Made by a program: the position numbers and the translations under genes. A DNA stretch of 64,000 nt. Source: Candidatus Woesearchaeota archaeon. Lineage in GTDB: Archaea; Nanobdellota; Nanobdellia; Woesearchaeales; UBA119. The stretch spans positions 7,574 to 71,573 of the forward strand of contig JASGME010000003.1 of NCBI GenBank assembly GCA_030156615.1, read 5' to 3'. A model generated the notes under the pieces. That model saw only the letters and a list, made by a program, of their open reading frames with translations. It ran no database searches and had not been told where the DNA came from. Shown piece after piece: positions 771 to 11,792 of the stretch. Within the stretch, counting starts at the first letter, position 1. Each line of letters opens with the position of its first letter.

Positions 771-3700
771 TTGCGATTCTATTGGAGAAATATCGTGGTA
801 GAAAGAAAAAAGAGAGCCCCTTTTAAAAGAATTAACAACAGAACTCTTCTTGTTTTGGTAGTTGCCCTTCTCCTGGCAACTTTTTTCTCCCAATTTCTTA
901 TTATAAATTCTCTTTTTGAAAAATCTGCTATTACCGGGCTGTCATTTTCTTCAGGAGAGATAAGGATGTGTGTGCTCTCTGAAGAAACTGCTTATGAATT
1001 TGAACGTCCAAAATCTTATGGGGTTATGAGGAAAGATGAATATGGGAATTATATGCTTAATCTAAGTAAGGTAACGGCTCCATTTCAATCCGAATATAAT
1101 TTCACATATTTAATAAAGTACTCAATCCTTGAAGAAGATTCAATTCTTCTTGGGCAATATGAAGCACCTCAAGGTTCAGCTTTTCTAACCCCCTCAATTC
1201 GTATTGCTGATCTTGAAGATAGAAATTGCGAGTATTCTTTGTATTATTACTCCAATCCAGATGAGGAATGCAGTAATATAGCAAATGTGGAGCATATTAG
1301 TGTAGATAATAATCCTCTACCTCCTATATGGGAAACATATAAAAATGAGAATTCAACAAACTTTAGTCAGTATAATTCTCCGCCGGACTTCTGGACAGCA
1401 ATCACAAACGCTACTCTTTATCATCCTCTTTATGGAAGTTTAAATTTCACTCCCTACACACTAAACTTTGATTCTGCAAACCTTGATGAAGGTACTGTCT
1501 TCTCACAGAATAAGCTTAATTTCTCAGAGAAAACCAGCCATTGCCTTAACTTTCCTGCATATCTTGAATTCAGGAACATTTCAATGTACTATCCTCTTTT
1601 GATGAGAAATGACATAGATTGTATATCTTCTCAAGAATGCTATTTTATTTCCTATAATAAAACAGAAGGAATCTATAGGGCATATATTCCCGGATTTGGC
1701 GAATATGAACTTGTTGAGAATGCAACTGTAATGCTTGAAATTTGGGATGATAATGATGAAAAAGGGGGGATGCTCAATAAAACAGTTGGAGAATCAGTTA
1801 ATTTCTTTGCTAATCTTACTGCAGAGAATGAGACAGTTGTAGCTGACGGAGTTTTCTGTAATTATTCCATATATGATTCTTATGAAAACCAAATCGCTTA
1901 TGGCGATGCTATTTACAATTCCTCCTCTTCATTGTATGAATTCAATCATACTTTTGATTCTAACGGAGTTTACACATGGAAGGTTTTTTGTTCCGCAGAT
2001 GCATTAGATTTAGGCAATGCAACTGCCGTTGATGATATTGAACTGAAATTTAACCCAGTCATATTCTCACATTGGACAGATTTGGATGAATCTGGTGGAA
2101 TTCAGATAAAGTATTCTAAACAGCCAGTTGGTTTTTATTCAGTTTATCTTGATGCTAAAACAAAAGAGCCAATAAATAAAACCACATCTAATTGTACTCT
2201 TTTTTTAAATAATCTTTCTCAGGGACGTTGGGTAGTAGATGAAAACTCAACATCATTGTTGATGGAATATTCAAACGAAACAGAGGAATACGAAACAACA
2301 TTCACTTTTCAATATCCGGGAGAATATCCATATTCAATTGTTTGCCAGGATTATCCATACCATGAGAACGGAACAGGTAGCGGCGTCGTAAGCATAAAAA
2401 ATAGACTTCCTGTTCTAATCGCTAATATATCTAATGTAACTATTCAACAAGGCTTTTCAACAACATTTGTAGATCTTGATAATCATTTTATTGATCCAGA
2501 TGGAGAACTGATAACTTTTTCATCATCATTTAATCCATACCTCAATGTGTTTATTTCTGAAGACAATAGAGTTACAATTATTGCAGGGACAGCATTCGAA
2601 GGAAATACCACACTTACATTTTTTGCTCAGGATTATACTCAAATTAAAGTGCCGTCAAACGAGATTACTGTTTTTGTATTACCTTCACAATACAAGAACG
2701 ACACTGAGCCATCAACTTCATCTTCTGAAGGAGAGCCGGGTTATATTGTTGCATGTAGAGAAAGATGGGTCTGTTCTGATTGGTCTCAATGTTATCCAGA
2801 CAGCTATATGTACAGAACCTGTGTTGATATGAATAATTGTGATACTCTATTAAGAAGACCAAAACTGAAAATGGAGTGTAATTATACTGGAACCTGTTTT
2901 GATGGCATTCAGAATCAGGGTGAAGAAGGAGTAGATTGTGGCGGTCCCTGTCCTCCCTGTCCTACTTGTTTTGATGGCATACAGAATCAGGGTGAAGAAG
3001 GCATAGATTGTGGCGGTCCCTGCTCTCCATGCCCAAGCTGTTTTGATGGCATTCAGAATCAGGGTGAAGAAGGCATAGATTGTGGCGGTCCCTGCCCTCC
3101 TTGTGGCATTCTAGAAGCGCCAATGACATTAAGAACTCCTCTTGAAGATTATCTCACAGAGATATCTATGATATCTGCACTTTTCATGGCTATTATGTTT
3201 TTCCTCTTAAACTTCTTTAATGAGATTAAGAATGCTATAAAAAGATTCTTTTCGTATATCAAAAAAATCGTGAAATCATATAGTTCAAGCGAGATCTCTA
3301 TTGTTGACATAGAGGATTACCTATTGAAGAATCTTGATAAAATACAAAATGAGGTATCTCTTAGTGAAAATAAAAGCCTCCTTGCAGAGCTAACTCGTCT
3401 GTATCGTTTTTTCATAAAGTATGTATTTAATCTTAGACTTGAGTTTACAATTGATGAGCTTAAAGAGTTCTTAAGGACTCAATCTGTTCCATCTTCAAAG
3501 AAAACAATTTATATTGCTTATCTTAAAGCATTAAACGAAAAAGGCTATAGCAATGAAGAAATCAGCAATGAAACAATAGAGAGATTCATCTCGCAATTTA
3601 AAAAAATCATTGAAACAAGCAGGGATCTTATAAGTAGGGCTGATTTATTGAGGCAAGAAGAGGAGATTATAAAGAGGTTGAATTTATTCCCATGGCGCAG

Positions 3701-3989
3701 AAGATTCCTAAACAAAAAACTCAGAATAGAGATAGAATCACACATATACAAGAATCTTGCTTTTATCAGAACTGCAATAGGAAACAAAGATAGCATAGGG
3801 GCTGCAGAGGAATACGAACTTGCTCGCATATTAGTTTATCTTTTACCTAAAAAATACAGAAAAAAATTCATCTCTTCTTTAGCAAATTATCATTCAGAGA
3901 TATCAGAAATGGAAAAAACCGGTAATGCTCAAAAGAGTAATCAAGATAAAAATGAAGCAAAGAATAAAAAGAAAAATAATAAAAGATAG
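771..3989 (+). CDS. Large surface glycoprotein/adhesin with TSP1-like motif, three Cys-rich repeats, second TM helix and about 250-aa cytoplasmic tail
   Basis: 1072-aa ORF (likely start GTG 795 after GGAG); N-terminal TM, Ig-like repeats, CRERWVCSDWSQC, 3x CFDGIQNQGEEG(V/I)DCGGPC, TM ISMISALFMAIMFFLLNFF, then charged helical tail. Confidence 0.85.
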   Translation: MRFYWRNIVVERKKRAPFKRINNRTLLVLVVALLLATFFSQFLIINSLFEKSAITGLSFSSGEIRMCVLSEETAYEFERPKSYGVMRKDEYGNYMLNLSKVTAPFQSEYNFTYLIKYSILEEDSILLGQYEAPQGSAFLTPSIRIADLEDRNCEYSLYYYSNPDEECSNIANVEHISVDNNPLPPIWETYKNENSTNFSQYNSPPDFWTAITNATLYHPLYGSLNFTPYTLNFDSANLDEGTVFSQNKLNFSEKTSHCLNFPAYLEFRNISMYYPLLMRNDIDCISSQECYFISYNKTEGIYRAYIPGFGEYELVENATVMLEIWDDNDEKGGMLNKTVGESVNFFANLTAENETVVADGVFCNYSIYDSYENQIAYGDAIYNSSSSLYEFNHTFDSNGVYTWKVFCSADALDLGNATAVDDIELKFNPVIFSHWTDLDESGGIQIKYSKQPVGFYSVYLDAKTKEPINKTTSNCTLFLNNLSQGRWVVDENSTSLLMEYSNETEEYETTFTFQYPGEYPYSIVCQDYPYHENGTGSGVVSIKNRLPVLIANISNVTIQQGFSTTFVDLDNHFIDPDGELITFSSSFNPYLNVFISEDNRVTIIAGTAFEGNTTLTFFAQDYTQIKVPSNEITVFVLPSQYKNDTEPSTSSSEGEPGYIVACRERWVCSDWSQCYPDSYMYRTCVDMNNCDTLLRRPKLKMECNYTGTCFDGIQNQGEEGVDCGGPCPPCPTCFDGIQNQGEEGIDCGGPCSPCPSCFDGIQNQGEEGIDCGGPCPPCGILEAPMTLRTPLEDYLTEISMISALFMAIMFFLLNFFNEIKNAIKRFFSYIKKIVKSYSSSEISIVDIEDYLLKNLDKIQNEVSLSENKSLLAELTRLYRFFIKYVFNLRLEFTIDELKEFLRTQSVPSSKKTIYIAYLKALNEKGYSNEEISNETIERFISQFKKIIETSRDLISRADLLRQEEEIIKRLNLFPWRRRFLNKKLRIEIESHIYKNLAFIRTAIGNKDSIGAAEEYELARILVYLLPKKYRKKFISSLANYHSEISEMEKTGNAQKSNQDKNEAKNKKKNNKR
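2895..3104 (+). repeat. Three tandem 72-bp in-frame repeats encoding Cys-rich 24-aa units
   Basis: Units start at 2895, 2967, 3039 (tgttttgatggcat.cagaatcagggtgaagaagg..tagattgtggcggtccctg), nearly identical at DNA level. Confidence 0.95.
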
Positions 3990-4013
3990 TTTGGTTTAAA
4001 TATTTTAAAATAT

Positions 4014-4023
4014 TACTGACAAG
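4014..4023 (+). promoter_or_regulatory. TACTGACAAG motif about 11 nt downstream of a TATA-like box, upstream of the cadherin-like gene
   Basis: Same 10-mer occurs at 8883-8892 (minus) upstream of the 216-aa gene at similar TATA spacing. Confidence 0.35.
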
Positions 4024-4050
4024 TAGGATAAATCGAGTAAAGGGATAAGA

Positions 4051-7000
4051 TTGGAAATCGAAAAAGAATACCTGATTATTGCAGGAATCGTTGTTATTTT
4101 GCTTTTAATAGCTTTTACTATAAACTTGTCTATGGAAAATGCTATAACTGGCTTCTACACTTTGCAGGAATGTGAAGCCATGTGTACAGGAAACACTCAA
4201 CCATACATCTCTCCGAGTTTTCCAAGGACATATAACCTTCTTGAAGATGAAGAATATTTGATAGAGATCATCGGGATTGATGCCGAGGGAGATGATATTT
4301 ATTATACAACAGATGAATCAAAGGGAACATGGGATTCATTGTTCCTATATCCAAATGGAACAATGAATATTACGCCTACTAATGATGATGTTGGGAGGAA
4401 GAGCATCTTTATAATTCCTCTCGATATCTGCAGCGATCCGGATGAGTGTGCCCAGACTCCTGATTTAACCACTTCTGCAATTACATTTTACATAGAGAAT
4501 GTTAATGATCTTCCTTTTGTTGTGGAAGCAAATCCAGAAGCAGGTTCTGGTTTTACAGGTGCAGAAAATCATTCTCTTTCCTTCAATGTAACTATTGCTG
4601 ATGATGATTATAGCATTGCAGATGAATACTATAATGAATCTTTTAATTATTCTTTTATTTTGGACGGAGCAATCAATTATTCTGAAACTCTGGTTAAATC
4701 ATTAGAATTCAGCTGGACGTATGAACCTGGTTGGTATGATGCAGGAGAACATAATGTGACATTTTTGGTTTATGATTACGAAGGCGCAAATGCATCATAT
4801 GAATGGATTTTTTATGTAAATAATACGAATCGTATTCCTCTTCAGAATGCAACACTGCCCAATATAACTTGGGAAGAGGATACTAATTCAACACCGCTTC
4901 TTTTAAATTACTACTTCTATGATTTGGATTTAGATGACTTTTTGAATTATTCAGTAAATGTTTCCTCAGGGATTAATTACTCTGTTTATCAGGATGAAGG
5001 CATGAGTTACATTAAATTTATTCCATTAAAAGACTGGTTTGGCAATCAAACAGTTGTAATGAATGTTTCAGACGGCTATGATTTCATTCTCAGCAATCAA
5101 TTTATCCTGAATGTGACAAATGTTAATGATCCTCCAATAATAGAAGAAATTCCAGATTTGTCAACGGCATCTGGCTATCTTTTTGAATATCCGGTTAATG
5201 CCACAGATCCTGATAATGACGCAATTGAGTATGGTCTCTTTGGAAATCCTTCGTGGCTTTCAATTTCAGAAGATGGAATTATAAATGGAACTCCTCCTGT
5301 TGGGGAAGAAGGAACATATATATTCAATGTTAGAGCAATGGACCCTTATTCAGCCTATTCTCTTGAAGAAGTTAAGCTGAATGTATTCTATGATCAGCCT
5401 CCTGTATTTGATGATATTGAGCATATTAACACAACAGAAGGGAATCTAACGAGGATAAATGTTTCTGTCAGGGATCCTGACGGGGATTCTTTTGAAGTAA
5501 TCTCTGATTTTAATTATGCTTTATACAAGTTTAACGATACTTTGTATTATTACAATTTTACCCCGAAGCAAATTGATGTTGGGGAGCATGTAGTGAGGCT
5601 AAATGCTACAGATTCATGGGGCTTGAAATCAACATATTCTTTTAACCTTACAGTTCTTGATAAAAACTTTCCTCCGGAATTAGATGAAGTTGGAGATCAG
5701 GTAGCTAAGATAGGAAAGGCCTATTTTTTTGATATTAATGCTACTGATCCAGATGATGATCCTTTGTACTACGATATTAATCTTAGTTTTGTTTCTATAG
5801 ATCATAGCACAGGCATTATAACCTATTCAGGAAGTTCAGAACATGAAGGGACATATGTCGTTAATGTATCTGTAGAAGATCCTGCTGGAGAGGTAGATTA
5901 TGAACTTATAAACTTCACAGTAACATATAATCGTCCTCCTGACTTAGAGGAGCTTGGCTATTTTGAGATTGAAGAGGATGTTGAATGGATAAAACAGATT
6001 AAGGCAACTGATCCCGATAATGACGAGCTATCTTTTGAGGCAAATGCCAGCATTGGCCTTAACTCATCAACAGGATTAATAAATTATACTCCTCCTTTGC
6101 CCGGTCTTTTCCATTACAATATAACTGTTCATGATGAAGATATGGCTTTTGATTCTTCTTTGTTAATCCTTAATGTTACCCCTTTCAATGATCCTCCGTA
6201 TATTAACACTTCCAACTTAAACATTACAACTATGGAAGAAAACGAGACAATAATATATGTAGAATATTTTGATGAGGAAGGAGCAGAAATAATCCTTTAT
6301 GATAATACTACTGATTTTGACTTCATAAAAATAAACAACACTTTGGGCAAGATTAATTATACGCCAATGGAACAAGGGAATTATTCATATCTATTGATTG
6401 CTTCAGATGGAGATAAAAATGGAACTGCAGTTCTTAATGTTAGCGTTTTGCCTTATAATCATCCTCCTGAGTTATATTCATATTCTCCTTCATTATTTGT
6501 CCCTGCTGTTGAGAGAGATGTATTGAATTTCTCAGTAGTTGTTCATGATCCGGATGGGGATGAACTAACCTTTAGATGGAAGTTTGATGATGTAGAACTT
6601 GACAATAACAAAGAAAATCTTTCTTATACTCTTGGCTGGTATGATGCAGGAACTCATGAATTGAGATTGGAAATAACAGATGCATTCAATCAACCAGCAA
6701 ATTCAACTCCGCTGTCTTGGTACCTTGTTGTAGAGGATCTTAATCGCCCTCCGGTCTATGGCAAACGAGTTTTTGATAACTTCTCTTCAGGAACATTTGA
6801 TAATTGTGTTAATGGAAGTTTGAAGCTTCTTAATGATTCAGACGGATTGTATCCTTTATCTGGTACATATATTACTCCAAGGATAGATTTCTTTGATGAG
6901 GGCTTTATACATTTTGACAGGATTGAAGCTGCTGTAAATCTAACAAGCAAGACCAACATCTCATTTGAATATAAAAAATCATTGAACAATCCTCCGATTG

Positions 7001-8223
7001 AGTTTGCAGATACTATAATGTGGGGAAGTTGGCAGCCCATTCCTCTTACATATCAGGATGCTAATCATTCAACTTTTACCTTCAATGGGAGCAATATTCA
7101 AAATGTAACAGAGAATTCAAAATATTTTCAGTTTAGAATCACCTTAAACACGACTGAAAGGACAGAAACGCCTATCCTGCATAACTTTACATTGTATTAT
7201 AATATTGCAGAGACATCAATTGATCAGGGCTCGTATGGAAATCGTTGGATAACACCAGAAAACTTTTTCATAGAGCATGATTTGGATAATGAGCTTAGCT
7301 ATTCTGCAACATCTGAATATGGTAAGGTTGTTGCATATTTTCCTGAAGGGCTGTCGTATGCCAAGATTGAACCGATAAATGATGAGTTTGTAGGTGAGGA
7401 CTTTATTACTGTCAGCGCTTCTGATGGCATTGCTTCTGTTTCTAGCGATCCTGTTAAGATTAATGTTGTGAAGAAAAATACAACTGGTCTAACAACGCAG
7501 TATCTAATCCAGACAAGAACAGAGACTGTAACGAGGTTTGTGCCAAAAACAGAGGAAGTTCCTGTGTATGAAGAATTTAATCTTTTGGTGCCTCAGAGTA
7601 TGACTCTGTATGAAAACGATACTGTAATTGTACCAATTTTATTAGACAATAGCGGAAACGATACTTTGTATGATGTCCAGCTGTATGCCGAAACAAATAT
7701 GAGCAATGTAGATTTCTACTTTACTAAAGATTACTTCCCTCAGATCCTTGCAGGCACAAAGGAAAACACATCATTGATAGTAACATCGTATAAAACAAGA
7801 GGCAAATATGATATTGTAATAAGAGCGGAATCAAAAGAGCCAGAATTCAATGACACTGCAAAGCTGATGATGGCCACAATAGAAGCAGGCGAGTACAATG
7901 AAACACAGATAAATACAAAGATAGCATCTACTAAAGATTTGATAAACGATAATCAAGAATGTATTGAATTCAGTGAGATGGTTAGGATGGCTGAGAGTTA
8001 TGTTGCCTCCGGTAATGTTGAAAAGGCAAACCAAATCCTTGATTCAGCTGTGGAAAGTTGTAAATATCTTATAACAAATGATCAGATTCTGAGGGAAAGT
8101 CCTATGCCTCAAAGAACCATGCGGGAAGAAAATCCTCTTATGTTCTTCGGGGTTGTTCTAATGATTGCAATCATTGTTCTCTTAGTAATACTATACTACA
8201 CAAAGTTTTCAACTAAGAAGTAA
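4051..8223 (+). CDS. Giant cadherin-like/Ig-like repeat surface protein with N- and C-terminal membrane anchors
   Basis: 1390 aa; repeated (N)xxP linkers (NVNDLP, NVNDPP, NFPP, NRPP, NDPP, NHPP) and DPDND/DPDGD/DPDDD Ca-binding-type motifs about every 90-100 aa; terminal TM FFGVVLMIAIIVLLVILYY. Confidence 0.85.
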   Translation: MEIEKEYLIIAGIVVILLLIAFTINLSMENAITGFYTLQECEAMCTGNTQPYISPSFPRTYNLLEDEEYLIEIIGIDAEGDDIYYTTDESKGTWDSLFLYPNGTMNITPTNDDVGRKSIFIIPLDICSDPDECAQTPDLTTSAITFYIENVNDLPFVVEANPEAGSGFTGAENHSLSFNVTIADDDYSIADEYYNESFNYSFILDGAINYSETLVKSLEFSWTYEPGWYDAGEHNVTFLVYDYEGANASYEWIFYVNNTNRIPLQNATLPNITWEEDTNSTPLLLNYYFYDLDLDDFLNYSVNVSSGINYSVYQDEGMSYIKFIPLKDWFGNQTVVMNVSDGYDFILSNQFILNVTNVNDPPIIEEIPDLSTASGYLFEYPVNATDPDNDAIEYGLFGNPSWLSISEDGIINGTPPVGEEGTYIFNVRAMDPYSAYSLEEVKLNVFYDQPPVFDDIEHINTTEGNLTRINVSVRDPDGDSFEVISDFNYALYKFNDTLYYYNFTPKQIDVGEHVVRLNATDSWGLKSTYSFNLTVLDKNFPPELDEVGDQVAKIGKAYFFDINATDPDDDPLYYDINLSFVSIDHSTGIITYSGSSEHEGTYVVNVSVEDPAGEVDYELINFTVTYNRPPDLEELGYFEIEEDVEWIKQIKATDPDNDELSFEANASIGLNSSTGLINYTPPLPGLFHYNITVHDEDMAFDSSLLILNVTPFNDPPYINTSNLNITTMEENETIIYVEYFDEEGAEIILYDNTTDFDFIKINNTLGKINYTPMEQGNYSYLLIASDGDKNGTAVLNVSVLPYNHPPELYSYSPSLFVPAVERDVLNFSVVVHDPDGDELTFRWKFDDVELDNNKENLSYTLGWYDAGTHELRLEITDAFNQPANSTPLSWYLVVEDLNRPPVYGKRVFDNFSSGTFDNCVNGSLKLLNDSDGLYPLSGTYITPRIDFFDEGFIHFDRIEAAVNLTSKTNISFEYKKSLNNPPIEFADTIMWGSWQPIPLTYQDANHSTFTFNGSNIQNVTENSKYFQFRITLNTTERTETPILHNFTLYYNIAETSIDQGSYGNRWITPENFFIEHDLDNELSYSATSEYGKVVAYFPEGLSYAKIEPINDEFVGEDFITVSASDGIASVSSDPVKINVVKKNTTGLTTQYLIQTRTETVTRFVPKTEEVPVYEEFNLLVPQSMTLYENDTVIVPILLDNSGNDTLYDVQLYAETNMSNVDFYFTKDYFPQILAGTKENTSLIVTSYKTRGKYDIVIRAESKEPEFNDTAKLMMATIEAGEYNETQINTKIASTKDLINDNQECIEFSEMVRMAESYVASGNVEKANQILDSAVESCKYLITNDQILRESPMPQRTMREENPLMFFGVVLMIAIIVLLVILYYTKFSTKK

Positions 8224-8863
8224 TCTCTTTATAGAGTTCATTAATCTCCCTCTTCAGGTTAGAATTTTCCTCTTTTGATTTTCCAACTAAATCAACCAAC
8301 TTGTTATAGCATTTGGCTGCCTGCTTTATATCGCCAGACTCAATGAAGCCGTAAGCTTTTATTATTAATCTCCTTGCTTTTAAAACAATCTTTTGTTCTT
8401 TTCTTTTTCTTCTTTCTTCTAAAAATTTTTTTAATTTAGATGTTTTATCATTTTTTTTCTGAGCAATATTTTCGTTTATTTTCTTTTCTTCGTATTCTTT
8501 TTTTAAGCTCATTACAATTCTCTGAAATTCATCAGAAAGATCATAAAGCGAGGTATTGTCTTTTGAAGGGGCAAACTTCATATTGAAAAGTTTATCGTTG
8601 AATTCCATTACATCCTTCCTTGTATTTTCAGAGATCTTATGTTGTTTTAATCTTTCATCAATCTCTTTAGACGAGAATTCCCCTTTTAATCCTAAATTTT
8701 CAGCGTAAAATCTCCTGACGAGCTGTGTGAAATTAATGAGCCAGTCCTGATTCTTTATCTTTGGAATCCTCCTCCTTAAATACCTAATGTCCTCGAGAAT
8801 TTTCCCTGAATCTTCAAAAGCCCTGTCTTCTTCCATCTTCTTGTTGAATTGTTTTTTTCTCAT
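8213..8863 (-). CDS. Soluble helical protein, apparent paralogue of the cytoplasmic tail of 771..3989
   Basis: 216-aa charged helical ORF, no TM; segment FTQLVRRFYAENLGLKGEFSSKEIDERL aligns by eye with LTRLYRFFIKYVFNLRLEFTIDELKEFL. Confidence 0.75.
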   Translation of the reverse strand: MRKKQFNKKMEEDRAFEDSGKILEDIRYLRRRIPKIKNQDWLINFTQLVRRFYAENLGLKGEFSSKEIDERLKQHKISENTRKDVMEFNDKLFNMKFAPSKDNTSLYDLSDEFQRIVMSLKKEYEEKKINENIAQKKNDKTSKLKKFLEERRKRKEQKIVLKARRLIIKAYGFIESGDIKQAAKCYNKLVDLVGKSKEENSNLKREINELYKEITS

Positions 8864-8882
8864 TTATCAATTCTGTTTTTTC

Positions 8883-8892
8883 CTTGTCAGTA
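8883..8892 (-). promoter_or_regulatory. TACTGACAAG motif (second copy) upstream of the 216-aa gene
   Basis: cttgtcagta on plus strand; TATA-like box at 8903-8910. Confidence 0.35.
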
Positions 8893-8932
8893 GTAAATAA
8901 ACTATTTAATTCTTCCTTTGTATTTCCCGAAT

Positions 8933-9928
8933 ATGGCTGAATCTACGAATGTGATTTCTAAAGAACAGGTTCTCTCTTTCGTTAAACAGCTTGAAAGCGT
9001 AAAGAAGGAGATTTCAAAAGCTGTAATAGGTCAGGCTAAGGTAATTGATATGATTCTTTCTGCCCTTGTTGCAAACGGCAATATCCTCCTTGAAGGAGTT
9101 CCGGGAACCGCCAAAACGCTTATAATGAGAACCGTATCAAAGGTTATGGGTTGTCAGTTCTCAAGGATACAATTTACTCCAGATCTATTGCCTACAGATA
9201 TTATTGGCTTAACAACATATGAAAAAGGAAGAGGCTTCTATGTTTTGAAAGGTCCTATATTTTCAAACTTTGTATTAGCTGATGAAATCAACAGGGCGCC
9301 TCCAAAGGTTCAGTCAGCTCTGCTTGAATCAATGCAGGAAAGACAGGCTACTATAGGCAAGGAAACATTTCCATTGCCTGTTCCATTTTTTGTTCTTGCT
9401 ACAGAAAATCCTTTAGAGAATGTAGGAACATATCCGCTTCCAGAAGCTCAGGTTGATAGGTTTTTGTTTAAGATATTTATCTCTTATCCGGAAATAGACG
9501 AAGAGATTAAGGTCTTAACAACGAATATGAGTATTCAGAAGTTTGAGGCAATTACCCTATCTCCTATCTTGTCTCCTCAGGAGATTATTCAACTGCAGGA
9601 TGCAGCAAAGAAGATTTATGTAGATGAAAGGATAAAAGAATACATTGTAAAGATTGTTGATGCTACGCGAAATCCTTCTAGATACGGTATTAAGTATGGC
9701 AAGTATATTCAATGGGGTGCATCTCCAAGAGGTTCAATAGGAATATATACGGCTTCAATGGCAAATGCACTTATAAATGGCAAGAATTTTGTCACGCCAG
9801 AGAATGTCAAGGCGGTAGCTCCAAATGTTTTAAATCACAGGATTATCCTTAATTATGAAGGTGTATCTGAAAATATTGATTCTTTTGATATTGTTGATGA
9901 AATTTTGAATAAGATTCCTGTGCCCTGA
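8933..9928 (+). CDS. moxR: MoxR-family AAA+ ATPase
   Basis: Walker A GVPGTAKT, RIQFTPDLLPTDI, Walker B ADEINRAPPKVQSALLE, ATENP, DRF, GASPR; ATG at 8933. Confidence 0.95.
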   Translation: MAESTNVISKEQVLSFVKQLESVKKEISKAVIGQAKVIDMILSALVANGNILLEGVPGTAKTLIMRTVSKVMGCQFSRIQFTPDLLPTDIIGLTTYEKGRGFYVLKGPIFSNFVLADEINRAPPKVQSALLESMQERQATIGKETFPLPVPFFVLATENPLENVGTYPLPEAQVDRFLFKIFISYPEIDEEIKVLTTNMSIQKFEAITLSPILSPQEIIQLQDAAKKIYVDERIKEYIVKIVDATRNPSRYGIKYGKYIQWGASPRGSIGIYTASMANALINGKNFVTPENVKAVAPNVLNHRIILNYEGVSENIDSFDIVDEILNKIPVP

Positions 9929-9949
9929 TTATAGCTTTGCGTGATTCCT

Positions 9950-10834
9950 ATGATAAAAGAACTTAATGTTGATCTAACACCAGTCATCGTTAAGATAGAA
10001 TTGGTTGCAAGGCTCGGTGCCAGCGGGATGTTCACGGGGGAATATAGCTCGAGATTTAAAGGACGAGGCCTTGACTTTGAGGGCTATAGAGAATATATGC
10101 CTGAGGACGATGCTCAGAATATTGACTGGAAAGCATCTTTACGAAGTGATGAGGTATTAGTTAAGATTTTCAAGGAGGAAAGAAACATAGATGTAATCTA
10201 TCTCTTTGATGTAAGTGCAAGCATGTGCTTCTCATCAACAGATAAATTAAAATGCGAATATGCTGCAGAGATGATTTCCTCTGTTGCATATGCAAACCTC
10301 TCTGCTGGTGATTCTGTAGGCCTCCTGATGTTTTCAGATGATATAAAGGCTTATTTGCCTCCAAATCAGGGAAGTGCACAGTACTTTAAACTTACGCAAT
10401 TCCTTAAAAATCCAAAGAATTACGATGGCTTGTTTAGTTTTGATAAAGCCATAGATTTTCTTTTAGGTCATTATACTACAAATTCGGTCATTGTTTTAGT
10501 CTCCGACTTTATAGGATTGCATCAGGGATGGGAAAAGAGGATAAGTGCTCTTGCATATAAGAATGAGGTGATTGCAATGATGATCAGGGATCCTAGGGAT
10601 GATTATATGCCTCCTGAAAATATGGAGGTTTTTGTGGGTGACCCTTTTTCACCAAAGCAATTCCTAATCAATCCAGTATGGCTTCATGATGCTTATAATG
10701 GAGAAGCAAAGGTTCAAAAAAACAAGATAAAATCTGAATTAAAGAAGCGAGGGGTGGATTTGTTTGAAACATCAACAGATAAGCCATATGCAACTGCCGT
10801 CCGCAATTTCTTTTTCATGAGAACGAGGAAATAA
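9950..10834 (+). CDS. DUF58 family protein (vWA-like, MoxR partner)
   Basis: GRGLDFEGYREY, DDAQNIDWKASLR, MIDAS-like DVSASM, VLVSDF. Confidence 0.92.
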   Translation: MIKELNVDLTPVIVKIELVARLGASGMFTGEYSSRFKGRGLDFEGYREYMPEDDAQNIDWKASLRSDEVLVKIFKEERNIDVIYLFDVSASMCFSSTDKLKCEYAAEMISSVAYANLSAGDSVGLLMFSDDIKAYLPPNQGSAQYFKLTQFLKNPKNYDGLFSFDKAIDFLLGHYTTNSVIVLVSDFIGLHQGWEKRISALAYKNEVIAMMIRDPRDDYMPPENMEVFVGDPFSPKQFLINPVWLHDAYNGEAKVQKNKIKSELKKRGVDLFETSTDKPYATAVRNFFFMRTRK

Positions 10835-10835
10835 G

Positions 10836-11792
10836 ATGGAGCTTATATTCACCTATCCGGGCTACTTGTGGTTCCTGCTTAGTCTGCCTATCCTTGCTTT
10901 AACGCATTTCTTTGTCCTACGTTTTGTCAAGAACAGAGCAATGAGGTTCGCAAACTTTGAGGTTCTGGAGAGGGTTGTATCCAGTGGAGAACATGGTATA
11001 AGGCATACGCATTTTGTCTCCAAGAACATAGGTCTTCTTATCAACAGACTTATTGTTGTTACTCTTATTGTATTGGCGATATCTGGAATAACTATTCTTT
11101 ACGAAGGAAACATAAGTTCTTTTGACTACGTTATTGCCTTGGATGCTTCAAGCAGTATGCTCGCTGATGATATGAACCCTACTAGATTTGATGTTGCTAA
11201 GGAATCTGCAAAGGAATTCATTGATTCAATAAGTTATGAAAGCAATGTTGGACTTGTGAAGTTTGCAGGTGTTGCAGAAATCGTATCGCCTTTAACATCC
11301 TCCCTTGATGAGCTAAAGGAAGAGATAGATGGTTTAAAAATGTCTCTTACTTCAGGCACGGATTTGACAGAGGCAATCTTTACATCAATAAACCTGTTGC
11401 CTCCTGTTTCAGATAAGAAAGGGGCTGTGATTTTGCTCACTGATGGAAGAAGCACTGTGGGTGAGCCAATCCAGACAGGCATTTCCTATGCATTGAACAA
11501 TAATGTTGTTATTCATACAATTGGGATTGGCACCCCTGAAGGCGGCACTTTTATGGAAGGAGGAATATCACAGCTTGATGAGGAAAGTCTAAAAGAGATT
11601 GCAGAGAAAACAGGAGGAAATTATTATAGGGCAAGTTCTCCAACAGCTCTTTCGAATGCCTTCAAAGAGATTGCTTCTATTGACAAAGGGAAGATAGATG
11701 TTCAGTTGTCCCCTCTGTTTATGTTCTTGGCCCTCGCCCTCCTTTTCATGGAATGGGGCTTGGTAAATACAAAGTATAGAACTTATCCTTGA
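10836..11792 (+). CDS. Membrane-anchored vWA-domain protein (BatA-like)
   Basis: N-terminal FTYPGYLWFLLSLP BatA-type TM region; MIDAS DASSSM...T...LLTDG; C-terminal TM. Confidence 0.92.
   Translation: MELIFTYPGYLWFLLSLPILALTHFFVLRFVKNRAMRFANFEVLERVVSSGEHGIRHTHFVSKNIGLLINRLIVVTLIVLAISGITILYEGNISSFDYVIALDASSSMLADDMNPTRFDVAKESAKEFIDSISYESNVGLVKFAGVAEIVSPLTSSLDELKEEIDGLKMSLTSGTDLTEAIFTSINLLPPVSDKKGAVILLTDGRSTVGEPIQTGISYALNNNVVIHTIGIGTPEGGTFMEGGISQLDEESLKEIAEKTGGNYYRASSPTALSNAFKEIASIDKGKIDVQLSPLFMFLALALLFMEWGLVNTKYRTYP

Follow-up and report, generated by a model that had tools for sequence, protein, structure and literature searches.

A helical domain shared by the cytoplasmic tail of a giant woesearchaeal surface protein and a soluble paralog encoded beside MoxR

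Why should the cytoplasmic tail of a giant archaeal surface protein recur as a small, free protein whose gene adjoins that of a MoxR ATPase? The matter bears on how DPANN archaea, which live attached to other cells, build and control their very large surface proteins. The locus that raises the question lies in a Candidatus Woesearchaeota archaeon (GenBank assembly GCA_030156615.1, contig JASGME010000003.1, positions 7,574 to 71,573 of the forward strand). This stretch of 64,000 nucleotides, here called the window, corresponds to contig C25 of an 861-kb genome that is 96% complete, and all coordinates without a contig or locus name are positions in it. Within its first 12,000 bases, the + strand carries the genes of a 1072-aa surface protein (the adhesin), a 1390-aa protein, a MoxR-family ATPase, a DUF58 protein and a BatA-type VWA protein, and the − strand carries a 216-aa open reading frame. 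A first-pass annotation of the window had proposed that the tail of the adhesin aligns along its length with the 216-aa protein; both reading frames are present as it gave them, at 771..3989 (+; 1072 aa) and 8213..8863 (−; 216 aa). In the following, S denotes the family of the 216-aa small protein and T the family of adhesin tails. We find that S and T are true homologs along their length and paralogs of one unannotated helical domain.

Pairwise comparison did not reveal this relationship with significance. BLASTP of S against the adhesin gave a best E value of 1.1, and phmmer over all open reading frames of the genome did not pair S with the tail at E ≤ 10. The Smith–Waterman score of S versus the tail was 72, compared to a mean of 48.1 (standard deviation 8.4) for shuffled sequences (z = 2.9); 13 of 1000 shuffles reached 72. 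The optimal Smith–Waterman path, with no correction applied, was the collinear alignment drawn in the first-pass annotation. Shallow hhalign profiles of S and T, containing close homologs only, gave P = 0.017 and were unhelpful because the homologs found first were too similar. The BLASTP and phmmer results, and the high score of shuffled sequences (48, against 72 observed), would fit a similarity arising by chance, or as a compositional artefact of two helical sequences rich in K, E, I and L.

The explanation by chance was refuted by profile comparison. Exhaustive phmmer searches with the small protein added seven more distant clusters of homologs (27–50% identity). A 10-homolog profile of the small protein matched the tail profile with a probability of 91.7% and an E value of 7.8 × 10−7 over 189 collinear columns. 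The real score of 48.7 was far above all controls: column shuffles did not exceed 21.8 nor block shuffles 25.9, and reversing the profile gave 14.6. The comparison using five tails raised the probability to 96% (E = 3.6 × 10−9). When the hidden Markov model (HMM) of the small protein was run over the 2589 open reading frames of the genome, the top non-self match was the adhesin tail (aa 843–968, E = 1.7 × 10−4), and the next match had an E value of 0.11. Two profiles built independently, one from S sequences alone and one from T sequences alone, drawn from about 20 genomes, matched in each of the two modules described below, with a probability of 99.7% and an E value of 8 × 10−26 over 104 columns for M1, and a probability of 98.8% and an E value of 5.4 × 10−17 over 65 columns for M2. 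Together with the conserved synteny considered below, these results leave chance similarity a practically negligible prospect. Thus, the lengthwise alignment that had been drawn by eye stands, with all four of its quoted segment pairs in register in the profile alignment; its significance is borne out by profiles and not by the pairwise score. The secondary structure agrees. The helices in AlphaFold2 models of S and of the tail match one to one in order, at a mean predicted local distance difference test score (pLDDT) of 81.5 for S and of 58.2 for the tail model, which is unreliable in detail.

The shared domain consists of two helical modules separated by a variable E/K-rich helix. M1 is about 105 aa long and has the consensus R.FF....L.I.YEFTYEEL..E..., followed after about 25 residues by ..I.EYSG.....L..L..E...I.; M2 is about 55 aa long and has the consensus A...Y..I...Y..L....K...Y..I..LY..I. 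Profile alignments and HMM search placed the DUF4129-like M1 of the adhesin tail at aa 850–952 (3318..3626, +; with LEFTIDEL ... KGYSN), and profile alignments placed its TPR-like M2 at aa 990–1051 (3738..3923, +; with AAEEYELARILVYLLP). In S, M1 covers aa 21–123 (8495..8803, −) and is joined through the E/K-rich helical linker to M2 at aa 161–215 (8219..8383, −). In this genome, M1 was found in S and T only, the next match having an E value of 0.025. Many S orthologs are longer (340–670 aa), with a low-complexity stretch and then one to three additional copies of M2, as in P0011 (670 aa), P0014 (470 aa) and the small-protein genes of loci L031, L032, L033, L037 and L038; both S length and M2 copy number differ between genomes.

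On which side of the membrane do the two copies lie? The adhesin is an AdhN-type surface protein with an N-terminal transmembrane (TM) helix or signal anchor, an ectodomain rich in Cys and sequons that contains three CxDGxxNxGExGxDCGGPCxxC repeats, a second TM helix (ISMISALFMAIMFFLLNFF, aa ~798–816; 3162..3218, +) and the tail. Over the 20 aa on either side of the second TM helix, the computed net charge changes from −3 (before) to +5 (after), in keeping with the positive-inside rule. Pooled over orthologs, the ectodomains contain 3.6 sequons and 4.7 Cys per 100 aa, and the tail domains 0.16 and 0.06, respectively. In a 2255-aa fusion protein described below, TM parity puts the domain between TM2 (645) and TM3 (886). 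Since flanking charge, Cys and sequon content and fusion topology agree, we conclude that T is cytoplasmic. S has neither a TM segment nor a signal sequence and is, as judged from its sequence, soluble. Hence, the proposal that one copy is membrane-tethered and the other free is supported.

S and T belong to a six-gene cassette that is conserved in the lineage: adhesin with T tail, a second giant surface protein (Big2), S, MoxR, DUF58 and BatA-type VWA protein. In the window, Big2 (1390 aa; 4051..8223, +) has Ig-like domains of the Big_9, He_PIG and PKD families and TM anchors at its N- and C-termini. The S gene is convergent with that of Big2, their 3′ ends sharing 11 nt at 8213–8223, and divergent from that of MoxR. 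The gap between S and MoxR is an A+T-rich spacer of 54 nt (8864..8917), presumably a shared promoter region. The MoxR gene (8918..9928, +) encodes an AAA+ ATPase recognised by AAA_3 (192.7 bits) and AAA_lid_2. It is followed by the gene of the DUF58 protein (9941..10834, +; 135.5 bits), whose VWA-like domain has an intact metal-ion-dependent adhesion site (MIDAS) motif, DVSAS, and which is predicted to be cytoplasmic because it lacks a TM helix. The BatA-type protein (10836..11792, +) has three TM helices (at about 6, 59 and 287) and the MIDAS motif DASSS, and matches BatA PF07584 at 31.4 bits (cut-off 25.9) and VWA at 67 bits. VWA partners with intact MIDAS thus adjoin the MoxR gene, a trait of MoxR–VWA chaperone pairs. 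The VWA domain of Borrelia BB0173, a BatA-type protein, was found by experiment to be periplasmic (PMC5700661), and from the similar layout we predict that the VWA domain of the BatA-type protein in the window faces outward.

How constant is this arrangement? The domain was present in 90 of the 151 genomes of the order to which the window belongs and in 126 of 251 genomes in a sample of the phylum; of these 126, 20 came from other orders of the same class, and every genome with the domain in this sample belonged to the order or class of the window. The adhesin, Big2 and S occurred together in about 19 of 23 distinct loci. MoxR was the immediate neighbour of S, mostly in divergent orientation, in 19 of the 21 evaluable loci, that is, loci from different genomes in which the MoxR-side flank is present. 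One of the two exceptions has an intervening reading frame and the other lacks MoxR. In gene order, the free copy is tightly linked to MoxR–DUF58–VWA. In about 19 loci, orthologs of both giant proteins lie on the other side of S, with a constant layout: the first protein has an N-terminal TM helix, the ectodomain, a TM helix and then the domain, and the second always has TM anchors at both termini. In most related loci, the Big2 gene is flanked by those of the adhesin and S. In at least 38 genomes, a DUF58 gene and a domain match share a contig and are about 2 kb apart. S remains with MoxR–DUF58–BatA also where the adhesin genes are not adjacent, as in L009 and in L044 (genome G055); in L044, the tail-bearing adhesin gene lies on another contig. 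As a separate observation, the genome of the window (G000) has a second DUF58 match besides that in the window, and many relatives have two to five. Several MoxR–DUF58 systems per genome seem to be usual in the order.

The adhesin and Big2 are fused in some genomes, giving single proteins of up to 2255 aa (L026 8975–15742, −; L027 14499–20000, −; L030 4924–8250, +), with the tail domain between two TM helices. Such fusions constitute a Rosetta-stone link between the two surface proteins.

The ancestry of the pair was analysed in a maximum-likelihood tree. A single branch, supported at 82/72 and present in 80% of bootstrap trees, split all S from all T sequences, and none of 500 shuffles of the S and T labels gave a value as low as that of the real tree. 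Because S and T form two separate clades, the duplication that produced them is ancient: it took place before the order diversified, and both copies have persisted since.

We next consider what kind of domain this is. Scans of S, T and 38 relatives with Pfam, NCBIfam and PADLOC gave no family model covering the domain. A Foldseek search of the S model against the PDB returned nothing below an E value of 0.6, the matches being generic three-helix, MIT and TPR structures. A word-indexed homolog search with a 38-sequence profile yielded six proteins, all from Woesearchaeota or DPANN. Two other candidates were set aside. The family profile matched the prosegment of Plasmodium histo-aspartic protease in the PDB (A5 positions 43–110; 3qvc_A / 6kub_A) with an E value of 4 × 10−4, which is probably a chance match because both are rich in K, N and E; J-domain helices found in a PDB sequence search at E > 0.01 were judged compositional or chance.

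The first-pass annotation had also likened the helical pattern to accessory proteins of Bat-type MoxR operons. This likeness holds for the setting, since the cassette with its MoxR, DUF58 and BatA-type proteins is Bat-like; it does not extend to a threshold match of S or T to the TPR proteins BatC and BatE, to BatD or to DUF4129. None of the six cassette proteins matched BatD (PF13584) or, at threshold, TPR models, whereas a Bacteroides comparator clearly did. Below threshold, TPR_16 matched 2 of 38 family members at an E value of 0.04, and TPR_6 and TPR_12 each matched single members, all on M2. The S and T proteins of the window had no match to DUF4129 (PF13559; gathering score 24.8 bits) even at E ≤ 10; one of 38 family members reached 19.9 bits, and in one of 30 genomes a tail matched, at 20.1 bits, both sub-threshold. 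Since a PF13559 scan of the 251 phylum genomes found no true DUF4129, ten comparator domains were taken from plasmid records. Most of these are encoded beside DUF58 or MoxR, and in those examined over their full length a TM helix precedes the domain. True DUF4129 proteins (a TM helix and then the C-terminal domain) likewise adjoin MoxR or DUF58 in records from Streptomyces, M. marinum and haloarchaea.

Comparison of M1 with these ten domains by hhalign was suggestive. M1 from all members gave a score of 17.6 (P = 0.0097, probability 4%, 68 columns), M1 from tails only gave 22.8 (P = 0.0012, probability 20%) and M1 from small proteins only gave P = 0.2. Shuffle maxima were 11.8–15.2, and M2 showed nothing. 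The alignment spans the whole domain in one register, with T-x-x-E and, about 30 residues on, an aromatic residue followed by S/G. The genomic context of DUF4129, beside MoxR and DUF58, is shared by S and T, and the position after a TM helix is shared by T only. These comparisons do not suffice to place M1 in DUF4129, although we hold it somewhat more likely than not that M1 is a divergent member.

What could the domain do? S and T are ancient paralogs within the six-gene cassette, and we lean towards the view that their domain is the cytoplasmic element that couples the surface proteins to MoxR/DUF58. In MoxR–VWA pairs such as RavA–ViaA and CbbQ–CbbO, the VWA protein brings the client to the ATPase. 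By analogy, DUF58 may recognise the domain; from synteny, we infer a putative docking of the domain to MoxR or DUF58. T would then be a handle that presents the surface-protein pair to a MoxR/DUF58 remodelling module. S would be a soluble partner of this module and would bind T, or the site of T, through homotypic or pseudo-symmetric helical contacts. Through its ATP-driven action, MoxR would serve to assemble or insert the surface proteins or to control their conformation, and the VWA domain of the BatA-type protein could engage them from outside.

The role of S in such a module can be read in more than one way. S and T retain the same conserved motifs in both modules, and therefore both could bind the same site. 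Instead of bridging, S might be a decoy or competitor that mimics the tail, occupies its site on DUF58, MoxR or another partner and thereby sets a threshold for engagement of the surface proteins. Its solubility, its transcription divergent from MoxR and its variation in length, with extra M2 repeats, are all consistent with such a role. However, there is no feature in the sequences by which competition could be distinguished from bridging, and the maintenance of separate S and T lineages since before the order diversified suits an obligate partner equally well. We regard the decoy as rather improbable. We give similarly little credence to an inside-out control of attachment, in which MoxR and DUF58 would grip the adhesin tail, the free paralog would act as a talin-like adaptor or competitor, and the BatA VWA domain would serve as an external clamp. 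If it were true, an episymbiotic DPANN cell could switch its giant surface proteins between states such as assembly, extension and host attachment or release.

A further alternative is raised by the distribution of M2, which is present in three more proteins of this genome (G000), encoded on other contigs outside the window. The M2 search identified a soluble protein of 646 aa (C28:31284-33224, −) in which M2 is repeated in tandem at least five times and which may have a winged helix at its N-terminus, an ABC-2 permease with a C-terminal M2 (C24:21127-23148, −) and a PKD/CarboxypepD_reg surface protein of 1049 aa whose tail carries M2 after the TM helix (C24:56510-59659, +). The M2 copies of the 646-aa paralog have sub-threshold matches to TPR_12 (E = 1.6 × 10−4) and TPR_2 (E = 2.6 × 10−3). 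This spread suggests a lineage-wide cytoplasmic tail module, possibly a scaffold network. Since other membrane proteins carry it too, M2 probably serves association in general, and the part of the domain specific to the cassette is M1. The domain as a whole might then be a general cytoplasmic scaffold or clustering device, in which M2–M2 contacts link the tails of several membrane proteins to the soluble multi-M2 protein; the domain would then bear no direct enzymatic relation to MoxR, and S would lie beside MoxR by co-regulation only. The three additional M2 proteins, the frequency of M2-only matches in large open reading frames of related genomes and the sub-threshold TPR matches that land on M2 would all accord with a scaffold. 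They leave unexplained why M1 is limited to S and T in this genome, why S holds its place beside MoxR across families even with the adhesin genes elsewhere, and why DUF4129 proteins occupy an analogous position in other MoxR–DUF58 operons. Therefore, we consider a general scaffold unlikely, though somewhat less so than the decoy.

Several observations also weigh against the coupling of surface proteins to MoxR/DUF58 that we favour. Only gene order ties the domain to MoxR or DUF58; proteins in which it is fused to MoxR, DUF58 or VWA were not seen. DUF58 is present in 133 of the 151 genomes of the order, and since it is nearly universal there, comparing the presence and absence of DUF58 with that of the domain is uninformative. 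The occurrence of M2 on the permease, the PKD surface protein and the soluble multi-repeat protein implies a role not tied to MoxR for part of the domain. Among polar motifs the best conserved, FT-x-EE, resembles a helix N-capping box, which would make it structural and not a binding site. Finally, the link to DUF4129 is below every accepted threshold, and the AlphaFold2 model of the tail is poor (pLDDT 58).

Some further features of the locus deserve mention. The listed start of the adhesin, in the region 771–800, is a TTG. A near-identical NCBI protein, P0006 (1064 aa), opens with MVERKK about eight codons downstream, and the listed start is therefore probably too far upstream. The membrane-proximal ectodomain of the adhesin (2750–3110) contains a W..C..WS.C...R.C.D.N.C motif and, after it, three near-identical CFDGIQNQGEEG(I/V)DCGGPC.PCP repeats; the W..C..WS.C motif and the Cys repeats are both kept in the distant orthologs P0016 and P0018, and neither has any Pfam match. 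In Big2, a Cys-flanked helical hairpin, ECIEFSEMVRMAESYVASGNVEKANQILDSAVESCKYL (aa ~1315–1355; 7990–8120), lies just outside the C-terminal TM anchor. The hairpin is kept in the L006 ortholog and looks M2-like by eye, yet the M2 HMM finds no match in it. Directly upstream of the adhesin, at 318–740, a 140-aa protein with an N-terminal TM helix is encoded; it has a weak match to an ASH/Cep192-type Ig fold (E = 1 × 10−5, below the cut-off).

The analysis defines a lineage-wide, unannotated cytoplasmic domain that is part of a giant surface protein and whose free paralog is fixed beside MoxR–DUF58–VWA. It gives six concrete proteins as a testable handle on the way in which a cytoplasmic machine is coupled to surface proteins, and it may help to explain the general function of MoxR/DUF58/Bat-type operons, including those of bacteria. 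If M1 is a divergent DUF4129, a cytoplasmic tail domain beside MoxR–DUF58 would be a rule common to Actinobacteria, haloarchaea and DPANN.

How does the cassette compare with known systems? The DUF4129 tails of TgpA-type transglutaminases in MoxR–DUF58 operons are alike in being small helical domains placed right after a TM helix on the cytoplasmic side. In contrast to these, the present domain has the additional module M2 and exists as a conserved pair of tethered and free copies, and the tethered protein is a giant Cys-rich adhesin instead of a transglutaminase. The Bifidobacterium PFNA cluster combines an FN3 surface protein with a MoxR-type AAA protein, DUF58, a transglutaminase and a Ser/Thr kinase. 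Judged by this gene content, the cluster resembles the cassette in joining a surface adhesion protein to MoxR and DUF58; it is, however, bacterial, and we know of no tethered and free paralog pair described for it.

The Bat (Bacteroides aerotolerance) operon and its spirochaete counterpart BB0170–BB0176 share with the cassette the core of MoxR, DUF58 and BatA-type VWA protein. The Bat accessory membrane protein with a large outside domain and the helical TPR proteins are separate in Bacteroides (BatD, BatC and BatE) and fused in Borrelia BB0170 (PMC5700661), which is the same tethered-or-free theme as that of S and T. Unlike the Bat operon, the cassette lacks, by Pfam, BatB (the second VWA protein), BatC, BatD and BatE; its surface proteins are Ig- or Cys-repeat proteins of 1000–1400 aa, and its helical domain is of a different, unannotated family.

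Makarova, Galperin and Koonin (2015; PMC5898192) predicted an archaeal system of MoxR/GvpN-type ATPase, vWA protein and membrane-anchored Ig-like surface proteins, and proposed that it assembles or regulates a surface complex. The cassette is similar in its MoxR, vWA and Ig-like surface proteins. The defining member of the predicted system is arCOG01314, a membrane protein whose outside domain is flavodoxin-like. The text of that paper has 0 occurrences of DUF58, and we saw in it no description of a cytoplasmic tail domain or a free paralog. Our literature search found no paper on a MoxR–DUF58 system in DPANN. Thus, the Bat/MoxR–DUF58 core of the cassette is known; what is new is the domain family and its conserved pair of tethered and free paralogs.

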